64,000 bases of DNA from an uncultured delta proteobacterium (GCA_963797235.1 CAWCOX010000006.1:191668-255667); one strand, 5' to 3'; shown: positions 5,178-63,607, numbered from the stretch's first letter. Numbers and translations: made by a program. Notes: generated by a model from the letters alone, not told the origin.

Positions 5178-5918
5178 GTGAAGATAGTCTATGCCGGTGA
5201 CAACAAGCCGCTGACCCGGCGCCGGTTGGATACCATCACCTTTTATCGCGACTATCTCCTCCGGGAGAATGGCCGTCTGGCCATTGATTGGCCGCGACTG
5301 GGGCTGCCGAAGCCCGAAGCCCTGGTGGTCACCGGCTACGGCAAGAATCTCTTGCAGAAAAATTTCCCGGCCATCACCGAAATCCGGGCCCATTTCCTGG
5401 GCGCCCGGCAGCAGACGGGCCTGGACCATTTCATCCTGCTGGAGGTGGGGGGCCAGGACACCAAGGTCCTTTATGTCAAAGACGGCCGGGTCTTCGATTT
5501 CCTCACCAACGACCGCTGCGCCGCCGGCACCGGCCGCTACCTGGAGAACATGGCCCGGTTTCTGAAGATGCCGCTGACCGAGTTCGCCGCGGCCTGGGCG
5601 GACCCGGTGGAGATCTCCCAGACCTGCGCCATCTTCGGGGAAAGCGAGCTGGTGGGGCATCTGCTGGAAGGGGTCGACCCGGGGCGCATCGCCGCCGGGG
5701 TCAATGCCTCCGTGGCCCGGCGAGCCCTGGCCATGGTGCGCCGTTACCGCTGCGCCACCCTGGTGTGCGTCGGCGGCGTGGCCCGCAACCGCGCCGTGAT
5801 TCATTTTCTCCAGGAAGCCAATAAATTCCGGGTGTTGGTGCCGCCGTATCCCCAATTCAACGGCGCCCTGGGTTGCTGCCTGGAGGCGGCCCGCCGGCCG
5901 GCGCCGGAGCGGCCGTGA
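5178..5918 (+). CDS. BadF/BadG/BcrA/BcrD-type ATPase (HgdC-like activase)
   Basis: Motifs EVGGQDTK, NDRCAAGTGRYLE and GGVARN. The in-frame upstream extension encodes the phosphate-1 motif GLDFGS (5154-5171) but has no canonical start codon, so the start is uncertain. Confidence 0.8.
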   Translation: MKIVYAGDNKPLTRRRLDTITFYRDYLLRENGRLAIDWPRLGLPKPEALVVTGYGKNLLQKNFPAITEIRAHFLGARQQTGLDHFILLEVGGQDTKVLYVKDGRVFDFLTNDRCAAGTGRYLENMARFLKMPLTEFAAAWADPVEISQTCAIFGESELVGHLLEGVDPGRIAAGVNASVARRALAMVRRYRCATLVCVGGVARNRAVIHFLQEANKFRVLVPPYPQFNGALGCCLEAARRPAPERP

Positions 5919-6934
5919 CCAGGTTGGCGCCGCAGGCCCCCCTGGCCCTGGCCCTCGGGCGGCTGCTGGCCCCGGCCGGGGCCCCTCCCCTGACCGGCGA
6001 GGTGGCCCGGGAAACGCTGCCGTCTTCCCGAGAGGTCTGCCGCTTCACCTTCCGCGGCAACGGCGCCGCCGTGGTGGGCAAATTTTATGGCGCCTATCCT
6101 GCCGCCACGCCGGCGGACCAGGGCCTGGTCCAGGAATATGACCACTATCTCCGGGCTGCGGAACTGGGACTGACCGAGGGCTTAGCCAGGATTCCGCGGC
6201 TTCTGGGCCGCCGGCCGGACCTCCGCCTGGGTCTGCTGCTGGAGGCCGTTCCCGGGCCGGACCTGGATCGCCTCATGCGCGGCGCCATCGAGCCAGGTAA
6301 GCTGGCCGACCTCGGTCGGGGCCTGGAAAGCCTGGCTGAACTCCTGGCCTTTTTTCACTCCCGCCCCTTGCCGGAGACCGCGGTGTCGGGCCGGGAAGCC
6401 TTGAGTTACCTGGACAAACTATTATTGCAACTGCGGCGGCAGGGCCTGCTTTCTCCTGAAGACGAGGGTGACCTGATCTCGGAGAGGGCCGCCTGGGAAG
6501 TCAGGCTGGCGCAATTTCCCGACCGGCAGGTGCTGGTGCACGGCGACGCCACCCCCACCAATTTTCTCTTCCCCGACCACGACGGGCGGGGAGGCCCGCC
6601 CCACGGGAGGGCGGTGGCCCTGGACCTGGAGCGCCTGCGGGCGGCGGACCGCCTCTGGGACCTCTCCTGGGTGGCCGGCGAACTCAAGCACGCCTGGGCC
6701 TGGCGCACCGGCCATGCGGCCGCGGCTGAACCCGCCATCGGCCATTTTTTGGCGGCTTATCTGGAGTCGCAGCCCCATAACCCGGACCTGGCGCAGCGCC
6801 TCTATCTCCTCAATCCCTTTTACATGGCCCTGGCGGAGCTGCGCATCGCCCGGAATGGTTATCTCGCCTGGGAGTACCGCCGCTGGCTGGTGGCCGAGGC
6901 TACAAGATGTTTGACTTACGGCAGGCGGTTATAA
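5915..6934 (+). CDS. aminoglycoside-phosphotransferase-like kinase family protein
   Basis: HGDATPTNFL (HGDxxxxN catalytic loop) and DLERL. GTG 5915 overlaps the activase stop (GTGA). Everything upstream of this GTG in the track ORF overlaps the activase. Confidence 0.65.
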   Translation: MTRLAPQAPLALALGRLLAPAGAPPLTGEVARETLPSSREVCRFTFRGNGAAVVGKFYGAYPAATPADQGLVQEYDHYLRAAELGLTEGLARIPRLLGRRPDLRLGLLLEAVPGPDLDRLMRGAIEPGKLADLGRGLESLAELLAFFHSRPLPETAVSGREALSYLDKLLLQLRRQGLLSPEDEGDLISERAAWEVRLAQFPDRQVLVHGDATPTNFLFPDHDGRGGPPHGRAVALDLERLRAADRLWDLSWVAGELKHAWAWRTGHAAAAEPAIGHFLAAYLESQPHNPDLAQRLYLLNPFYMALAELRIARNGYLAWEYRRWLVAEATRCLTYGRRL

Positions 6935-6947
6935 GAATTGCCTCTTT

Positions 6948-6999
6948 AGAGCCGGCGCCCTCGCCGGCTCTAAAACCGCCGGGGGCGGCGGTTCTACAT
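6948..6999. repeat. double-hairpin element, family R1
   Basis: AGAGCCGGCGCCCTCGCCGGCTCT AAAACCGCCGGGGGCGGCGGTTCTACAT. Confidence 0.85.
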
Positions 7000-10049: not shown

Positions 10050-10162
10050 GAGAAATTACGGTGACCATCGGCAGGCTAACGATTCCCGCCGATGATGATT
10101 TTTTAATGCTAAAATATCAGAGGCCAGAAGCAGGTGTCAATTCAAGAAGCGGAGGAGGGCCT

Positions 10163-11290
10163 ATGATCTACCTGGACTACAACGCCACCACGCCGGTGGC
10201 CCCGGAGGTGGCCGCGGCCATGCAGCCCTTTCTGGGGCCGGAGTTCGGCAACCCGAGCTGCGACTATCCCCTGGGGCTGAAGGCCCGGGAGGCGATGCAC
10301 CAGGCCCGGCGAGAGGTGGCGGGGCTCTTGAACTGCGCCCCGGATGAGGTGGTCTTCACCAGCGGGGCCACCGAGGCCAACAACCTGGTCCTCAAGGGCG
10401 TGGCCCTGAGCCGCGGTTCGGGCCTGATCATCACCGCGGCCACCGAGCATCCCGCGGTGCTGGCGCCCTGCCGGTGGCTGGCCTCGCTGGGCATCGGCTT
10501 AACGGTGCTGCCGGTGGACCCGCAAGGTTTAGTGGACCCCGAGGCGGTACGCCGGGCCCTGACCCCGGACACCATGCTCATCAGCATCATGCACGCCAAC
10601 AACGAGACCGGGGCCCTGGCGCCCCTCAAAGAGATTGCCGCCATCGCCCGGGAGGCCGGCGTGCCGCTGCATACCGACGCGGCCCAGAGCGTGGGCAAGG
10701 TCAGGGTGGACGTGGAGGAATTGGGGGTGGATTTTCTCACCGTGGCGGGGCACAAATTCTACGCCCCCAAAGGGGTCGGAGCGCTTTACCTGCGCCGGGG
10801 CCGGGAACTGACGCCCCTGCTGCACGGCGCCTCCCAGGAGGGCGGCCGCCGGGCCGGCACCGAGAACCTGCCCTATATGGTGGCCCTGGGTGAGGCCTGC
10901 CGCCTGGCAAAGGTGCGGCAGACGGCCGACGCCGCCCACCTCAAAGAGCTGCGGGACCTGCTGCACGCCAAGCTCAAGGCCGGCTTCCCCGGCCTGGTCC
11001 TGAACGGCCCCGAGTCCGCGCGCCTGCCCAGCACCTTGAACGTCTCCTTTCTCGGGATTTCCGGGGCCGAACTTATGGCCGGGGTGCCGGAGGTGGCCGC
11101 CTCTCTGGGGTCCGCCTGCCACGCCGGCCAGGAGTCCATCTCCCCGGTCCTGGCGGCCATGGGGGTCGCGGCCGCAGTCGCCCGGGGCGCGGTGCGCTTC
11201 AGTCTGGGCCGGCCCACCACCCGGGAGGAGATTGAAAAGGCTGCGGCCTTGATAGTGAAACAGGCTCTGGCCCTGGCCGCAAAAAAATAA
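10163..11290 (+). CDS. cysteine desulfurase (NifS/IscS family)
   Basis: MIYLDYNATTP start after RBS GGAGGA. SGATEANN, PLP-lysine context AGHKFYAPKG and catalytic Cys in SLGSACHAG. Confidence 0.9.
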   Translation: MIYLDYNATTPVAPEVAAAMQPFLGPEFGNPSCDYPLGLKAREAMHQARREVAGLLNCAPDEVVFTSGATEANNLVLKGVALSRGSGLIITAATEHPAVLAPCRWLASLGIGLTVLPVDPQGLVDPEAVRRALTPDTMLISIMHANNETGALAPLKEIAAIAREAGVPLHTDAAQSVGKVRVDVEELGVDFLTVAGHKFYAPKGVGALYLRRGRELTPLLHGASQEGGRRAGTENLPYMVALGEACRLAKVRQTADAAHLKELRDLLHAKLKAGFPGLVLNGPESARLPSTLNVSFLGISGAELMAGVPEVAASLGSACHAGQESISPVLAAMGVAAAVARGAVRFSLGRPTTREEIEKAAALIVKQALALAAKK

Positions 11291-11788: not shown

Positions 11789-12721
11789 TCAAGTTTCTCC
11801 GGCCAGCCAGAGATAGAGGAACTGGGGGCCGGCGCTCTCCAGCTCCGGGACCATGGAGTAGATATTGGGGCGGTAAGTGCCGGGCCGGTGATAGCGAACG
11901 ATCCGGGCCCCGGAGATGCCGGCCAGGGCCTGGGCCTCCTTCAGGGCGTCGTCCAGGTAGCCGATCTGGTCGATCAATTTCAGGTCCCGGGCCTGGGGGG
12001 CGGTGAAGATGCGGCCGTCGGCCACCTGCCGGACCTCTTTGAGGCTCATCTTACGGCCCTGGGCCACCACGTTGATGAAGTCCCGGTAAAATTCCTCGAT
12101 GATCTGCTGCATCATCTCTTTTTCTTGGGGGGTGGCGGCCCGGAAGGGCGACCAGAAATCCTTCCAGGCCCCGGTCTTCACTACGTCGGTATCCACCCCC
12201 ACCTTGTCCATTAGGCCCCGGAAGTTGAATTTCATGGCGATGACCCCGATGGAGCCGGTGATACAGGTGGGATAGGCCATGATGGTGTCGCCGGCCTGGG
12301 CCACGTAATAGCCCCCGGAGGCGGCCAGGCCCTCCAGGCAGACCACGATGGGCAGGTGGCGCTCGGCCTTGAAGCTCTGCAGTTCGTGGAGGATGACGTC
12401 CGCGGCGCTCACGGTGCCCCCCGGGGAATTGATCTTCAGGACCACCGCCTTGATGTGGTCGTCCTTGGCGGCCTTCTCCAGTTCCTCCTTCACCCGGCTG
12501 GGGGTGGTGACGCCCTTGAAGAGGCCCAGAAGGCGCTGGGGGCCACTTTCCACGACCATGCCGTGGATGTCCAGCAGCAGGACCTTGTCCCGGCCGTAGC
12601 CCGATACGGTCTTCTCCTTCAAGGGTTCGGCCTCTTCGAAGAGGGGGACTTTGACGGTGATGCAGCCGGCCAGCACCAGGAGAACTAGACTAATTATGGC
12701 CAGGATAATTTTGGGACGCAT
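11789..12721 (-). CDS. sppA: signal peptide peptidase SppA (36K type)
   Basis: N-terminal TM segment. NSPGGTVSA and GLAASGGYYVA serine-protease motifs. Confidence 0.85.
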   Translation of the reverse strand: MRPKIILAIISLVLLVLAGCITVKVPLFEEAEPLKEKTVSGYGRDKVLLLDIHGMVVESGPQRLLGLFKGVTTPSRVKEELEKAAKDDHIKAVVLKINSPGGTVSAADVILHELQSFKAERHLPIVVCLEGLAASGGYYVAQAGDTIMAYPTCITGSIGVIAMKFNFRGLMDKVGVDTDVVKTGAWKDFWSPFRAATPQEKEMMQQIIEEFYRDFINVVAQGRKMSLKEVRQVADGRIFTAPQARDLKLIDQIGYLDDALKEAQALAGISGARIVRYHRPGTYRPNIYSMVPELESAGPQFLYLWLAGET

Positions 12722-16288: not shown

Positions 16289-16325
16289 AACTGACAACTG
16301 ACCACTGACAACTAGGCAACTGACC
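16289..16325. repeat. tandem heptamer array x5 abutting the dnaG ATG
   Basis: AACTGAC AACTGAC CACTGAC AACTAGG CAACTGACC, then ATG 16326. Confidence 0.85.
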
Positions 16326-26292: not shown

Positions 26293-26320
26293 ACTGACTA
26301 CTGACTACTGGCTACTGATC
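26293..26320. repeat. tandem heptamer array (ACTGRYY)x4 abutting the formyltransferase ATG
   Basis: ACTGACT ACTGACT ACTGGCT ACTGATC, then ATG 26321. Confidence 0.9.
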
Positions 26321-27274
26321 ATGCGCCTCATTTTCATGGGTTACCACAACATCGGCCACGCCTGCCTGGAAGTCCTGATTGATCTCTGCCGCCATTGCGG
26401 CGACGAGATCGTGGCGGTGGTCACCCATGCGGACGACCCCCGGGAAAACCACTGGTTCGCCTCGGTCAGGGACCTGGCCTTCGAGAATTATCTGCCGGTC
26501 TACCAGCCCCGGGACCCCAACGCCCCGGAATTCGTCGAGGTCATGCGGAAGCTGGCGCCGGATTTTCTCTTTTCCTGCTATTATCGCCACATGCTGACCA
26601 AGCCGCTGCTCGATCTGCCCGCTAAAGGGGCGCTCAATCTGCACGGCAGCCTGCTGCCCCGCTACCGGGGCCGCTGTCCGGTGAACTGGGTCCTGATCCA
26701 CGGGGAGACCGAGACCGGCGTCACCCTGCACTACATGGAGGAAAAACCGGACAAGGGCGACATCGTCGGGCAGGAGCGGGTCGCCATTCAGCCGGAGGAT
26801 ACGGCGCTGACCCTGTTTGCCCGGATGACCGCGGCCGCCGGCACCTTAATGCGGGAGGTCTATCCCCTGCTGCGGGCGGGCACTGCCCCCCGGCTCCCCC
26901 AGGATCAGAGCCGGGCCTCCTATTTCGGCGGCCGCCAACCTTCAGACGGCCTCATTTCTTGGGACAAAGACGCCCTGGAGGTATATAATCTGGTCCGGGC
27001 CGTTACCCACCCCTACCCCGGGGCCTTCACCCACCTCCGGGGCAAGAGGCTGTTCATCTGGGCCGGCAAGCCCCTGGCGGAGCCGCCGGCCTCAGACCAG
27101 GCCATCCCCGGCAGGCCGGGGCTGGTATCGGGCTATTTGCCGGGGCAAGGGCTGCTGGTGACCACCGGCCGGGGCCACTTCCTCATCACCCAGGCCCAGT
27201 GGGAGGGGCAGCCGGAGTTTTTAGGGCCGGTCGTCGCCACCTGGGATTATCTGGTGGGGGAAAGGTTGGGTTAA
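26321..27274 (+). CDS. arnA: formyltransferase, ArnA N-terminal-domain type (stand-alone)
   Basis: HGSLLPRYRGRCPVNW formyltransferase motif and a C-terminal OB-like domain. 317 aa. Confidence 0.8.
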   Translation: MRLIFMGYHNIGHACLEVLIDLCRHCGDEIVAVVTHADDPRENHWFASVRDLAFENYLPVYQPRDPNAPEFVEVMRKLAPDFLFSCYYRHMLTKPLLDLPAKGALNLHGSLLPRYRGRCPVNWVLIHGETETGVTLHYMEEKPDKGDIVGQERVAIQPEDTALTLFARMTAAAGTLMREVYPLLRAGTAPRLPQDQSRASYFGGRQPSDGLISWDKDALEVYNLVRAVTHPYPGAFTHLRGKRLFIWAGKPLAEPPASDQAIPGRPGLVSGYLPGQGLLVTTGRGHFLITQAQWEGQPEFLGPVVATWDYLVGERLG

Positions 27275-27276
27275 GG

Positions 27277-27329
27277 ATGTAGCGCCGGGACGGTTCTGAG
27301 CTGAACCGCCGAGGGCGGCGGTTCTACAT
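27277..27329. repeat. double-hairpin element, family R1, with ATGTAG/CTACAT termini
   Basis: ATGTAGCGCCGGGACGGTTCTGAGCTGAACCGCCGAGGGCGGCGGTTCTACAT. Confidence 0.85.
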
Positions 27330-36176: not shown

Positions 36177-36280
36177 TGAAAATCTCCCCTCCCCCCGTTT
36201 TGCAAAGGGAGGGGTTAAAGTCCCCCTTTGAAAAAGGGGGATTTAGGGGGATTTGAAGTTTTCGCGCTAAAGTCTGCGGC
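36177..36280. repeat. ~100-bp composite palindromic element, family R4 (copy A)
   Basis: GAAAATCTCCCCTCCCCCCGTTTTGCAAAGGGAGGGG..TCCCCCTTTGAAAAAGGGGGATTTAGGGGGATTTGAAGTTTTCGCGCTAAAGTCTGCGGC. Confidence 0.9.
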
Positions 36281-37430: not shown

Positions 37431-37535
37431 GAAAATCCCCCCTGCCCCCCTTTGTCAAAGGGGGGGTCCAAAAAGTCCCCCTTTGAAAAAGGGGGATTTA
37501 GGGGGATTTGAAGTTTTCACGCTAACGTCTGCGGC
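37431..37535. repeat. ~100-bp composite palindromic element, family R4 (copy B, same orientation as A)
   Basis: GAAAATCCCCCCTGCCCCCCTTTGTCAAAGGGGGGG..TCCCCCTTTGAAAAAGGGGGATTTAGGGGGATTTGAAGTTTTCACGCTAACGTCTGCGGC. Confidence 0.9.
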
Positions 37536-41466: not shown

Positions 41467-41527
41467 GTGTAAAACCGCCGCCCTCGGCGGTTCCTCTCAG
41501 ACGCCGGTGAGGGCGCCGGCGCTACAT
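41467..41527. repeat. double-hairpin element, family R1 (inverted orientation)
   Basis: The reverse complement reads ATGTAGCGCCGGCGCCCTCACCGGCGTCTGAGAGGAACCGCCGAGGGCGGCGGTTTTACAC. Confidence 0.85.
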
Positions 41528-41538
41528 TATTAACTAAT

Positions 41539-42291
41539 TCAATCCTTTCGATTGATCAACGCCGCCAGGAAGCCGGCGCCGAAGCCGTTGTCGATGTTGA
41601 CCACCGCCACTCCGGTGGCGCAGGAATTGAGCATGGCCAGCAGGGCCGCCAGGCCGCCGAAGGAAGCGCCGTAGCCCACGGAGGTGGGCACGGCGATCAC
41701 CGGCCGGTCCACCAGACCGCCCACCACGCTGGGCAGGGCGCCTTCCATGCCCGCCACCACCACGAAGACGGTGGCCTGGGCCAGCAGCTCCCGGTGGGCC
41801 AGCAGCCGGTGCAGGCCGGCCACCCCCACGTCATAGACCGGCTCGGCCCGGTGCCCCATGATGCGGGCCGTGAGCAGCGCCTCTTCGGCCACCGGGATGT
41901 CGGAGGTGCCGGCGGAGAGCACCACGATCACGCCCCGGCCCCGGTCGGGGACCTGGCCCCGGCTGAGGGTCAGCACCCGGGAATCGGGGTGGTAACGGGC
42001 CTGGTCGAATTCGGCCAGCAACACCGCGGCCTTTTCTCCGTCCAGGCGGGTCACCAGGACGTGGTCGGACCGGCGCGTCAGGGCCTCTATAATCCCCCGA
42101 ATCTGCTCCAGGCTCTTGCCCTCGGCGAAGACCACCTCCGGGAAGCCCTGGCGCAGCTGCCGATGGTGGTCCACCCGGGCGAAACCCAGGTCTTCGAAAG
42201 GCAAGGTCCGGAGCCGCTCCACCGCCTGATCGACGGACAATTGCCCCTCTTTAACTTCGGAGAGCAACTGCTCTAAAACTTTGATATCCAT
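41539..42291 (-). CDS. larB: LarB-type (PurE-like) nickel-pincer cofactor biosynthesis protein
   Basis: N-terminal extension with ARVDHHR. PurE-like core [13 protein letters not shown] and [16 protein letters not shown]. Confidence 0.8.
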
Positions 42292-59617: not shown

Positions 59618-62057
59618 AGAACCGGGCGGCACCATCCGCCACATCTTCGGCCTGGAGCGCCTGCGCTCCCGCCTGCCCCGCTCACTAAGCAAGTTGGCGC
59701 CGCCCACCTGGGATGAACGGCTCATCAAAGTGGCTCTGCTCCTGGTCCTGAGCCTCGGCCTGGCCTTCGTGCTGGCGCCCAGGACCTCCACCACCTCCCG
59801 GCAGTACCATGTGGGGGATATCGCCCGGGAGAACGTCAAGGCCACCGGCGAGTTCCTGGTGGAGGACGTGCAGACTACCGCGCAGCGCCAGCAGGAACTC
59901 CTGGCCCAGACCCCGCCGGTCTTCGACCTGGAAGAGCAGATGGCCGACAAGGTGCAGCAGCGCCTCCAGAAGGCCATGGACTACATGCGCCGTCTTTCCC
60001 AGGAAAACGCCGGCATTGAGCGGCCGACCGCCGACGCCAAGGCCAAGCCCAAGGCCAAGGCCAGGCCCAAACCGGCCGGCCCTCACAAGGTGTTCATGGA
60101 GCATAAGGCGGAGTTTGACAAGCTCCTGGGGGTGTCCATCCCCAATCCCACCTTTCAGCTCCTGGTCAAGGGGGATTTCTCCCCTTACCTGGAGGCCATG
60201 ACCAGTCAGGTTTTAACCCAATTTTTCAATCAGGGAGTGGTCAGCAGCCGCAACGTCCTGCAGCCGCCTCCCAAGGAACTCGTGGTGCGGCGCCTGCCCT
60301 CCAAGAAGGAAAAGCTGGAACGGGCACCCTTCCCCTTCCTGGAGATCGATGAGGGGCGCAAATCCGCCGCGGGTTATTGCCGGGAGAACGCCGTGGAGGT
60401 TTCCCCGGCGGATCGTTGGGTGGTCTGCGACCTGACCCAGTATCTGCTGGTTCCCAACGTCTCGCCCAACTGGGCCGAAACCCAGGAACGCCAGCAGGCC
60501 AAGCTGAAGGAATTGCAGCCGGTCTACTTCAAGGTCAAACGGGGCGAGATGCTCATCCGGGAAGGCGAGCCCATCACCGCCCTGCACCTGGCGCAACTGC
60601 ATGCCCAGAGCATGCTCTACCCCCGCAGCCGGGCCGTGATGATCTTTCTGGGCATATTTTTCTGCCTGGTGGTGCTGCTGTCGGTGTTTTATCAGCTGGC
60701 CAGCCTCTCCCTGCGGAATTTCTCCCAGCGCCCCCGGGACCTGGCTTTTCTGGCCGCCTTGCTGCTCACCAGCGCCCTGGCGAATAAATTTCTCCTATTT
60801 CTAGGTGACCACCTGGCTCGGAACTTGCCGGCGGTGGGCCTCAACCTGGTCTATCTGCTGCCCCTGGGCCTGCCCGCCATCTTCGCCGCCATGTTCCTGG
60901 GCCTGGAAACCGGCGTAGGCGTAGCCTTTCTCAACGCCACCTTCACCGCCCTGATGGTGCCCCGGCCCTTCCCCTTATTCCTCTATTTTGTCATCGGCGG
61001 TCTGGTAGCGGTCTGGGGCGTCAAAAACAGCCGCCGCCGCAACTCCCTGATCAAGGCCGGCCTGGACATCAGCCTGGCCAACATTTGTCTTCTGGCGGCC
61101 TTCAAGATGCTGGAATATCCCTTCGCCTGGCGGGATTTACTCGATGGCGAGGTCTTCGCCCTCTTCGGAGGCCTGCTCACCGGCATCCTGGCCTTGGGCT
61201 TAACCCCCATCATGGAGGCGACCTTCCGCTATTCTTCCAACATCCGCCTCCTGGAACTCCTGAACCTGGACCAGCCGATCCTCCGGGAATTTATGCTGGT
61301 GACCCCGGGCACCTACCACCATTCCCTGGTGGTGGGCCAGATGGTGGAGGCCGCCGCCGAGACCATCGGCGCCAACCCCATGCTGGCCAAGGCCGCGGCT
61401 TACTACCACGACGTCGGCAAGATCAAGAAGCCGGTCTATTTCGTGGAAAACCAGATGGCCGGGGAAAACAAGCACGAAAAGCTGGCCCCGTCCATGAGCA
61501 GCCTGATCCTCATCGCCCACGTCAAGGACGGAGTGGAACTGGCCCGGAAACACCATCTGGGCGAGGCCATCGTCGACATCATCCGCCAGCACCACGGCAC
61601 CAGCTTCATCAGCTATTTTTATCACAAGGCCAAGGCCCAGGCCGCCAATCCCCAGCAGGTGAACATCGAGGACTATCGCTATCCCGGTCCCCGGCCCCAA
61701 ACCAAGGAAGCCGGCCTGGTGCTCCTGGCGGACCAGGTGGAGGCCGCCTCCAAAACCCTGACCGAGCCCACCCCGGCCCGCATCCAGGGACTGGTGCAGA
61801 AGATCATCAACAACGTCTTCGCCGACGGCCAGTTGGACGAATGCGAACTGACCCTGAAAGACCTGCACCACATCGCCAAGAGCTTCCACAAGATCCTGGG
61901 GGGCATCTTCCACCAGCGTATCCAATACCCCCAGTCCGCCGAAAAGAAAAAGAGCAATGAAGATCTGGATAAGCAACCGCCAAAGAAAAACGGCCATAAA
62001 CCCGGAGAGGGTCAGGAAAAGAGCCGGGAAGATCTTAAGCGCCTTGGGATGGTCTGA
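59607..62057 (+). CDS. 7TM-receptor HD/HDIG phosphohydrolase (YqfF-like)
   Basis: Extracellular domain, 7 TM helices, then HHSLVVG...YYHDVGK...HHGT. GTG 59607 overlaps the phoH stop. The track ORF 5' part lies inside phoH. Confidence 0.85.
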
Positions 62058-62445
62058 GGCCGAACTGAGCCTCACCCTGCTGGGCGACCGGGCCATGGCC
62101 CGCCTCAACCGGGAGACCTTCGGCCGCCGGGGTCCCACCAACGTCATCTCCTTCCCTATGGATGGAGAACAGGCGCCCTCGCCGGTTCATTTACAGCCGA
62201 GGGCGGCTGTTCCACATCCCTCGCCCCTCTTGGGCGAAGTGGCCATCTCCATCGAAACCACCCGCCGCCAGGCCAAAGAATTCGGCTGGCCCTGGCAGGA
62301 ACTCTTCGACTTTTTCCTCATTCACGGTATATTACATCTGATGGGCTACGACCACGGCGCCCCCGGGGAAGAAACGGCCATGACCGCCAAAACCTGGGAG
62401 CTGATGAAACTGCTGCATCCCAAAATAGTAGTCAGTGGCCAGTAG
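61957..62445 (+). CDS. ybeY: rRNA maturation endoribonuclease YbeY (contains an in-frame repeat insertion)
   Basis: GPTNVISFP and HGILHLMGYDH. About 16 extra residues (QAPSPVHLQPRAAVPHP) are encoded by a REP-like element. Confidence 0.9.
   Translation: MKIWISNRQRKTAINPERVRKRAGKILSALGWSEAELSLTLLGDRAMARLNRETFGRRGPTNVISFPMDGEQAPSPVHLQPRAAVPHPSPLLGEVAISIETTRRQAKEFGWPWQELFDFFLIHGILHLMGYDHGAPGEETAMTAKTWELMKLLHPKIVVSGQ
62171..62217. repeat. degenerate family R1 element embedded in frame in ybeY
   Basis: AGGCGCCCTCGCCGGTTCATTTACAGCCGAGGGCGGCTGTTCCACAT aligns with 6952-6999. Confidence 0.7.
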
Positions 62446-62459
62446 TCAGTTGCCAGTAA
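62425..62459. repeat. tandem heptamer array x5 containing the ybeY stop codon
   Basis: ATAGTAG TCAGTGG CCAGTAG TCAGTTG CCAGTAA. It shares AGTGGCCAGTAGTCAGT with 2113-2147. Confidence 0.85.
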
Positions 62460-62521: not shown

Positions 62522-62606
62522 CAAAATCCCCCTGCCCCCCTTTTTCAAAGGGGGACTTAAACCCCCCTTTGAAAAAGGGGGGCAGGGGGGATTTGAAATT
62601 TGCTTG
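62522..62606. repeat. composite palindromic element, family R4 (copy C)
   Basis: CAAAATCCCCCTGCCCCCCTTTTTCAAAGGGGGACTTAAACCCCCCTTTGAAAAAGGGGGGCAGGGGGGATTTGAAATTTGC. Confidence 0.85.
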
Positions 62607-62635: not shown

Positions 62636-62663
62636 GCTGACCACTGGCTACTGACTACTGAAA
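62636..62663. repeat. tandem heptamer array x4, inverted relative to 62425-62459
   Basis: GCTGACC ACTGGCT ACTGACT ACTGAAA, followed by RBS GGAGA for pdxJ. Confidence 0.85.
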
Positions 62664-63392: not shown

Positions 63393-63400
63393 ATTTTCAT

Positions 63401-63586
63401 AGTGGCACAGGCTTCCAGCCTGTGTGTCTCACAGGCCGGAGGCCTGTGCCACTAAGATTGCAGCTCCATGGTGGGGCGGGCGTCTCGCCCGCCATCGGTG
63501 TAGGGTGCGCACTGCGCACCATTATTCAACGACCGGTCGCACAGGCGTCTCGCCTGTTTACTAATAGAAGGTGCGCAGTGCGCACC
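63401..63586. repeat. cluster of at least five REP-like hairpins (R2 double hairpin plus four R3-type)
   Basis: AGTGGCACAGGCTTCCAGCCTGTGTGTCTCACAGGCCGGAGGCCTGTGCCACT; GGTGGGGCGGGCGTCTCGCCCGCCAT; GTAGGGTGCGCACTGCGCACC; GCACAGGCGTCTCGCCTGT; GGTGCGCAGTGCGCACC. Confidence 0.85.
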
Positions 63587-63607
63587 CTGCACGGAAATAG
63601 ACGAAAT

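Follow-up and report, generated by a model that had tools for sequence, protein, structure and literature searches.

The conserved RNase gene ybeY of an uncultured delta proteobacterium carries, in frame, a 56-nt copy of a palindromic repeat, R1, that is also dispersed between genes. The copy lies in a 64-kb stretch of DNA, here called the window, and positions are counted from its first nucleotide. We consider it probable, at roughly three chances in four, that a REPIN mobilised by a REP-associated tyrosine transposase (RAYT) landed in a permissive loop of YbeY, survived in frame and is decaying as weakly constrained coding sequence. The reading of a preliminary description of the same DNA, namely a dispersed repeat that is tolerated in frame within a conserved RNase, is supported. 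Loci fetched for comparison carry L numbers.

Results

An R1 copy within the ybeY reading frame

The gene ybeY has a 7TM-HD gene on one side and pdxJ on the other. Its ORF, 61957-62445, runs unbroken through the insert, with the frame kept and no stop codon. The ORF shares its first 101 nt (61957-62057) with the tail of the preceding 7TM-HD gene, and many YbeY homologues conserve the N-terminal strand MKIWISNRQ... In many database YbeY entries of the clade the annotated start lies about 29 codons too far downstream, giving 133-aa versions; avoidance of the 7TM-HD overlap by gene callers is the probable cause. The features to which the text refers are the following.

61957..62445, plus strand: ybeY, 162 aa, host of the insertion (Pfam PF02130, E 3.5e-29)
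62158..62229, plus strand: variable YbeY loop between ...GPTNVISFP and LGEV; 24 codons, MDGEQAPSPVHLQPRAAVPHPSPL
62162..62217, plus strand: R1-derived insert, REP doublet (REPIN) of 56 nt, ATGGAGAACAGGCGCCCTCGCCGGTTCATTTACAGCCGAGGGCGGCTGTTCCACAT (nhmmer E 3.5e-9)
62164..62187, plus strand: left REP arm; degenerate head GGAG, stem AACAGGCG, loop CCCT, stem CGCCGGTT
62193..62217, plus strand: right REP arm; stem ACAGCCG, loop AGGG, stem CGGCTGT, tail TCCACAT (canonical form TCTACAT)
62323..62355, plus strand: metal-binding motif HGILHLMGYDH, intact, 3' of the insert (from the translation)
6947..6999, plus strand: intergenic R1 copy, 13 nt past ORF 5873-6934; two adjacent hairpins, -37.1 kcal/mol, z -5.7
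27277..27329, plus strand: intergenic R1 copy, 3 nt past the stop of ORF 26321-27274; left arm degenerate
41468..41528, minus strand: intergenic R1 copy, 10 nt past the stop of ORF 41539-42291, same strand

A profile HMM of R1 was trained on 44 full-length copies, all of them from genomes other than that of the window. In the window it matched just four loci. The ybeY copy scored 33.1 bits (E 3.5e-9) over model positions 3-58 of 58, and the other three loci were the intergenic copies at 6947-6999 (E 2e-16), 41468-41528 (1.6e-15) and 27277-27329 (3.1e-9). A search for the 21-nt core CCGMSGGCGGCGGTTCTACAT with at most three mismatches gave the same picture, with four window sites (6979, 27309, 41467 on the minus strand, and 62197) against an expectation of 0.01 from shuffles. 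The ybeY copy and the R1 family consensus are of equal length and align ungapped with 44 of 56 positions identical. The resemblance of the ybeY segment to the intergenic copies, noticed in the preliminary description, is thus far beyond chance under a proper alignment statistic. Its extent had been given as 62171-62217; the element begins 9 nt further upstream, at 62162 (ATGGAGAAC...), because both the HMM match and the ungapped consensus alignment reach this position. The earlier figure of about 16 extra residues is too low, the element covering about 19 codons (D-GEQAPSPVHLQPRAAVPH). The copy folds into a single long hairpin of -38.4 kcal/mol (z -5.4).

The insert is presumably translated in vivo, across EQAPSPVHLQPR. 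The metal site downstream of it is intact and the identification of the gene as YbeY holds, both as described before; H123, H127 and H133 are invariant in an alignment of YbeY homologues, and the H-x3-H-x5-H motif is present. An AlphaFold2 model built on a 39-sequence alignment reached a pLDDT of 86.6 and a pTM of 0.81. Its core lies above 90, and residues 70-86, between the strands 63-67 and 91-98, lie below 50. Foldseek matched the model to 1oz9 (TMt 0.87), 1xm5 (0.81) and 7y7o, each with a probability of 1.00. Alignment to the solved YbeY structures leaves a gap at the insert, of 13 residues versus 1oz9 and 10 versus 1xm5. In the model, therefore, the insert is a predicted disordered surface loop between two strands and is compatible with the YbeY fold.

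Anatomy and spread of R1

Judged by its sequence, R1 is a compact REP doublet (REPIN) of about 56 nt, in which two GTAG-headed imperfect palindromes are placed in inverted orientation with a spacer of 4-6 nt. The consensus is ATGTAGCGCCGGCGCCCTCGCCGGCGCaGGAACCGCCGAGGGCGGCGGTTCTACAT, which over 44 copies resolves into the parts ATGTAG-CGCCGGCG-CCCT-CGCCGGCG-cagg-AACCGCCG-AGGG-CGGCGGTT-CTACAT. The GTAG ends of both palindromes point outward. Lone arms exist as well, beside other GC-rich palindromes. R1 folds in two ways: the segment 6945-7005 gives two hairpins (-37.1 kcal/mol), the ybeY copy a single long one. The preliminary description had called the family MITE-like on account of ATGTAG/CTACAT termini in the intergenic copies. 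The sequences of the three window copies confirm these inverted termini, and GTAG-tagged REP doublet is the more exact name for an element whose arms each consist of GTAG plus a palindrome and which flanks RAYT genes in related MAGs.

The three intergenic window copies lie 3-13 nt downstream of gene ends, a position typical of REPs. In the fetched loci, 111 of 140 profile matches span at least 49 of the 58 model positions. When one genome per species was scanned, more than 111 stretches with the R1 core were found; among the matches listed, nearly all cores came from Desulfobaccales or 'delta proteobacterium' MAGs. An exact core with a full doublet was also seen in L042 (6439-6460), a contig binned as Thermoanaerobaculia (Acidobacteriota), for which mis-binning or transfer is possible. 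In several relatives, a full doublet occurs in the ybeY-pdxJ spacer (L192 10501-10556, L193 2920-2975, L194 10468-10522, L138 5650-5706); the spacer of the window holds other palindromes in its place.

R1 is mostly extragenic. Among about 140 matches in the sampled related MAGs, clearly intragenic copies were restricted to ybeY and PolB. A screen of the fetched loci gave 31 R1 matches within long stop-to-stop ORFs, and the ten longest candidate ORFs were checked against Pfam. Only three of these ten, all DNA_pol_B ORFs, hold R1 in a recognised coding region; five gave no Pfam match. Aldedh (L044) and ProRS (L067) were discarded as hosts, their R1 copies lying 5' of the real start.

Association of R1 with RAYT genes

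Transposase-like ORFs beside R1 copies were located by a phmmer search of all fetched loci, the window included. L060 6070-6705 and L096 6625-7203 are ORFs of REP-associated tyrosine transposases (86.5 and 94.2 bits to NCBIfam NF047646, cut-off 80), and each has R1-type REPs on either side. The REP arm downstream of the L060 gene is identical to the right arm of the ybeY copy at 25 of 25 positions. In L096 the flanking doublet is of the 'ACAG...CTGT' subfamily, matching the variant of the ybeY copy. The search found no RAYT gene in the 64-kb window, and the link between R1 and RAYT hence rests on the related MAGs. From this association we infer that a RAYT acting in trans moves R1 by cutting and rejoining single strands.

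Two further candidates were rejected. Apparent compensatory changes in the hairpin of the ybeY copy were considered as a sign of selection. The ACAG/CTGT pairs are, however, also found in the RAYT-flanking R1 of L060 and L096, so the ybeY copy had them from its source subfamily. In L192, a RAYT gene (11920-12650, 116 bits to NF047646) that lies downstream of pdxJ was considered as a local source of R1; it stands between GTTCCCAAGC...GCTTGGGAAC hairpins, its own flanking REPs, which are of a different family. This gene sits between two copies of about 30 nt (TGGGCCGGCTGCGTGCAGTCGTTTAAAGG) that include the 3' end of an upstream 175-aa gene, an arrangement that looks like a REPtron insertion with target duplication.

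Descent and decay of the ybeY copy

In YbeY homologues of the clade, a hypervariable loop separates GPTNVI[AS]FP from LGEV. Among 178 distinct sequences it measures 13 to 78 residues, and 54 of them have a basal loop of 13 residues, e.g. LDDAPSPGGPPAL. Loops of orthologues differ by whole codons (13, 22, 24, 27, 32 and 36 residues), in a sample that is biased because it was picked by similarity to the R1-bearing query. Outgroup YbeY proteins have 13-residue loops without R1 similarity. Comparison with R1-less relatives likewise favours the insertion that the preliminary description had proposed: the flanks of R1-loop loci held seven further R1 matches in 175 kb, and the sampled flanks of loci with the short basal loop held none in 123 kb. 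The 13-residue loop LDDAPSPGGPPAL was also considered as a deletion remnant of R1, with which it has 'APSP' in common. This was rejected, since its Ser codon is AGT versus TCG in R1 and outgroup loops of this length show no R1 similarity.

The syntenic locus L192 (GCA_040960995.1) has a loop of 32 residues, i.e. the 13 basal ones plus 19, or 57 added nt. Both of its hairpins are intact (AACAGGCG/CGCCTGTT and ACAGCC/GGCTGT). The element itself measures 56 nt versus a loop growth of 57 nt, the extra base perhaps coming from a variable spacer or from the flank. In the window and its closest relative L196 (95% identity) the loop has 24 residues and the R1 part is retained; both are without about eight codons downstream of it (TPAISAGE), and owing to this later loss the window loop is just 11 residues above the basal 13. 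L196 reads ATGTAG where the window reads ATGGAG, its left arm thus still having the GTAG head, and in L196 and L192 a head GTAG/GCAG is kept together with the perfect stem AACAGGCG/CGCCTGTT.

The element stands at the same codon and in the same ACAG/CTGT variant in five syntenic phoH / 7TM-HD / ybeY / pdxJ loci (L196, L192, L197, L198, L199). The same holds for the metagenome loci L118 and L115, whose surroundings were not included. Orthologues with the insert span 64-95% identity. With divergence, the identity of their copies to the consensus drops from 45/56 to 29/56 and the fold energy weakens from about -32 (down to -38) to -18 kcal/mol. On this comparison of orthologous sequences the ybeY insertion is ancient and inherited, a point absent from the preliminary description, as is the presence of other repeat families in the loop of relatives.

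Between the window and L199 the insert has diverged by 0.27 at codon positions 1+2 and by 0.42 at position 3, compared with 0.14 and 0.37 in the core. Its divergence is intermediate between core positions 1+2 and core position 3, and the weaker contrast between positions 1+2 and position 3 than in the core indicates relaxed constraint. Between the window and L197 the insert has diverged by 0.071 and synonymous core sites by 0.223. This lower divergence among close relatives might point to some constraint or to homogenisation.

A bootstrapped tree built from the adjacent 7TM-HD protein interleaves the loop types. The window (R1) is sister to L194 with a hybrid loop (bootstrap 96), L197 (R1) to L116 with other repeats (bootstrap 100), and L115 (R1) to L142 with a basal loop (bootstrap 100). 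A single insertion followed by vertical decay is therefore insufficient, and replacement, loss or recombination is needed as well. The tree of the YbeY core (about 97 residues) is too poorly resolved for counting events.

Other repeats in the YbeY loop, in PolB and in the window

The loop DNA of relatives was searched against 1.3 Mb of loci after the loops in these had been masked. At least four other palindromic repeats occupy the same YbeY loop, after loop codon 3-4. In addition to the R1-containing hybrid of L194, the following were found.

GTAGGGGCGGTTCGCGAACCGCCCCTAC: loop repeat in L117, L119 and L113; up to 18 matches
GTAGGGGCACGGCTTGCCGTGCCC: loop repeat in L125 and L138, and twice in L156
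GTAGGGGTACAGCGAGCTGTGCCCCTAC: loop repeat in L112; REP-like structure, no further copies in the compared loci
C-rich palindrome: in the loops of L114, L116, L125 and L138; 37 matches, family also at window 62522-62595
GGTGGCACAGGC...GCCTGTGCC: loop repeat in L116; related copy at window 63400-63455

In the composite L194 loop (10115-10213) an R3-like REP is joined to the right half of R1, whose reading frame is shifted. Two further loops are composite as well: that of L138 (5196-5423) has 76 residues and three repeat types, and that of L156 (2037-2270) has 78 residues and two tandem copies of a longer unit with GTAGGGGCACRGCTTGCCGTGCCC. The loop sequences and the interleaving of loop types indicate that this part of YbeY underwent repeated gain, nesting, replacement, loss or recombination.

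Repeat nests were also found in a family-B DNA polymerase of three Desulfobaccales MAGs (L006 3-2315 and L030 4130-6541, both minus strand; L079 1-1683, plus strand). Here two variable regions with conserved flanks are packed with in-frame repeats, among them a single R1 arm, the R3 family (CRGGSRTAL), a heptamer repeat and the C-rich palindrome. One of the variable regions directly follows the DFASMYPTIMA...NISPETVNC motif.

The window contains further repeats of this kind. A heptamer-type repeat, (CAGTRGY)n, forms 23-nt inverted arms on either side of the ybeY-pdxJ spacer, at 62427-62449 and 62637-62659. YbeY takes its final residues and its stop (IVVSGQ*) from the left arm. Copies also occur at 2121-2144, 16291-16314 and 26294-26317, there being nine window matches versus 0.02 expected; within the PolB gene of related MAGs the heptamer repeat is read as QWSVVS. 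The C-rich palindrome at 62522-62595, of the perfect type, has 33-nt arms, 94% complementary, and an 8-nt loop (AAAATCCCCCTGCCCCCCTTTTTCAAAGGGGG...). It belongs to a dispersed family with members at window 36221-36238 and 37448-37493, which is translated in frame in the four YbeY loops listed above and in PolB of L006 and L079 (PLFQRG). Directly after pdxJ, at window 63400-63600, lies a cluster of GC-rich palindromes (GTGGCACAGGCTTCCAGCCTGTG..., GGGCGGGCGTCTCGCCCGCC, and GTAGGGTGCGCACTGCGCACC with an inverted partner). By these sequences, the genome of the window carries several REP-like families.

Discussion

The origin that we favour for the ybeY insert would begin with R1 being moved by a REP-associated tyrosine (HUH/Y1) transposase that acts in trans. 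In an ancestor of the window's lineage, a copy from the ACAG/CTGT subfamily would have landed between the codons for the NVISFP strand and those for the LLGEV strand. It would have survived because the length added is a multiple of three (57 nt, 19 codons), because the frame avoids the TAG inside GTAG (GTA-GAA, i.e. Val-Glu) and because the loop is permissive, disordered and at the surface. Afterwards the copy would have been inherited as ordinary, weakly constrained coding DNA, its GTAG head and hairpins eroding with divergence, and the sublineage of the window would have deleted about eight codons immediately downstream. The insert is most likely a tolerated passenger without function of its own, and presumably neutral.

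A Pro/Ala/Gly-rich loop in a genome of 62% GC gives GC-rich, partly palindromic DNA, so one may ask whether the likeness arose by chance or convergence in coding DNA, or whether R1 derived from the ybeY loop. We regard this as next to impossible in view of the full-length profile match (E 3.5e-9, identical length), the 25/25 identity to a RAYT-flanking arm, the ATGTAG head intact in L196, more than 100 extragenic copies in many genomes, and the 13-residue loop of outgroups, which has no such sequence. The nature of R1 is a second matter. As a classical MITE it would have come by deletion from an insertion sequence, have terminal inverted repeats, be moved by a DDE transposase and leave a target-site duplication, and the ybeY copy would be one of its insertions. 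ATGTAG...CTACAT termini do form inverted repeats, and most copies are flanked by AT...AT in an A/T-rich context, a possible 2-bp duplication; but the reverse complement of AT is again AT, the dinucleotide could be part of the inverted repeat, and these flanks therefore do not separate a duplication from an extended inverted repeat. Each arm by itself is a GTAG-plus-palindrome unit, lone arms occur, and the RAYT genes of L060 and L096 have members of the family on either side. On incidental inspection, the 140 R1 matches in 1.37 Mb of loci showed no larger parent element with such termini, and the transposase genes adjoining R1 in the fetched loci were RAYTs only, with no DDE-type parent element seen. 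We therefore hold a MITE origin to be quite improbable. Hardly better are the chances that the insert has been co-opted, either through its hairpin of about -38 kcal/mol as a cis-acting element of ybeY mRNA (in stability, ribosome pausing or self-regulation of an RNase gene), or through its Pro/Ala-rich peptide as a functional extension, e.g. in partner binding. Co-option would account for the retention of the insert across orthologues of 64-95% identity, the fairly well conserved N-terminal EQAPSPV, a divergence below that of synonymous core sites in close relatives and the fold z-score of -5.4. Yet the hairpin is steadily lost as orthologues diverge, down to -18 kcal/mol and 29/56 identity; the apparently compensatory ACAG/CTGT pairs stem from the source subfamily rather than from changes within ybeY; close relatives have replaced the insert, are without it or have unrelated repeats at the same spot; the window has lost eight adjacent codons; and the region is predicted to be disordered.

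Rather doubtful, though better placed than these, is a reading that overlaps with the main one. In it, several REP/RAYT systems actively target the YbeY loop through its sequence or structure, and the loop is a nest of fast turnover; the R1 copy would be not a fossil but one state of this nest, with gain, replacement and perhaps precise excision. At least five different palindromic repeats at the same position in relatives speak for it, as do the interleaving of loop types on the bootstrapped neighbour-gene tree, the hybrid L194 loop of an R3-like REP and the right half of R1, the comparable multi-family nests in PolB and the different REPs at one recB site (PMC3733652). Against this, the R1 copies of distant orthologues have their position and derived changes in common, in keeping with descent; clustering without targeting is also predicted if selection leaves few permissive sites; the orthologue sample is biased to the R1-bearing query; and recombination between ybeY alleles could give a mosaic. 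A shade more doubtful still is the wider proposal that the 13-residue YbeY loop and the two PolB loops are preferred REP/RAYT landing sites in Desulfobaccales, with insertion, nesting, swapping and perhaps seamless excision. If the landing-site reading were true, REPINs would be a standing source of length variation in protein loops and not one-off accidents.

In-frame insertion of a RAYT-mobilised REPIN, the origin we prefer, has precedents. GTAG-tagged REPs, their 'HH' dimers and REPINs with RAYT transposases have been described (Nunvar 2010; Bertels & Rainey 2011, PMC3116915, PMC3337134; Di Nocera et al. 2013, PMC3733652). Among intragenic GTAG REPs, dimers that encode 20-30 residues are already on record, and there is a bias to replication and repair genes (PMC3733652). 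R1 resembles these systems in its GTAG head with imperfect palindrome, its inverted units with the GTAG ends outside, its folding as two hairpins or one long one, the many copies just 3' of genes, the R1-type units flanking RAYT genes in related MAGs and the occasional intragenic dimers encoding about 20 residues. It differs in that the 64-kb window itself has no RAYT and that R1 is very compact (56 nt, spacer of 4-6 nt). REPINs of Pseudomonas are about twice as long. A further difference is that Desulfobaccales and ybeY are absent from the published host lists.

Protein genes are also in-frame hosts of Rickettsia palindromic elements (RPEs; Ogata et al. 2000; review in PMC10969869). Like R1 in ybeY, RPEs are palindromic mobile repeats in conserved housekeeping genes, the extra peptide being translated and judged compatible with the fold. 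RPE-1, however, measures about 100-150 bp; RPE-4 and RPE-6, short repeats of Rickettsia, carry a CGTC tag and have no known transposase (PMC3733652); none of these elements is related to R1 in sequence; and R1 is mostly extragenic in the sampled related MAGs. Prokaryotic MITEs such as Correia, ERIC and Nezha (PMC10969869) are likewise small and non-autonomous, have inverted termini and can fuse in frame with ORFs; R1 differs from them in its modular GTAG-hairpin build and RAYT association, and in having no demonstrable target-site duplication or IS parent. In recB, different REPs occupy about one position in Xanthomonas campestris versus X. oryzae (PMC3733652), which parallels the distinct repeats in the YbeY loop of relatives. 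The YbeY case differs in its at least five families, its order-level clade, its nested and hybrid states (L194, L138, L156) and its target, a 13-residue loop of a small RNase. In the literature we found no report of repeats in YbeY, and Desulfobaccales were not covered. The insertion is therefore of a known kind in a new host gene and clade, and the multi-family hotspot in the YbeY loop is a modest extension of existing knowledge.

For annotation the case is a warning, since gene callers and aligners will mishandle such loops. It is also a natural experiment on the insertion tolerance of the YbeY loop, and the recurrent use of this loop by different repeats could help to test REP targeting versus selection filtering. 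REP/REPIN-RAYT systems are extended to Desulfobaccales. With the source family, the probable transposase and a series of decaying orthologous copies all identified, the R1 copy in ybeY offers a clean, datable example of selfish repeat DNA that has turned into part of a conserved housekeeping protein.
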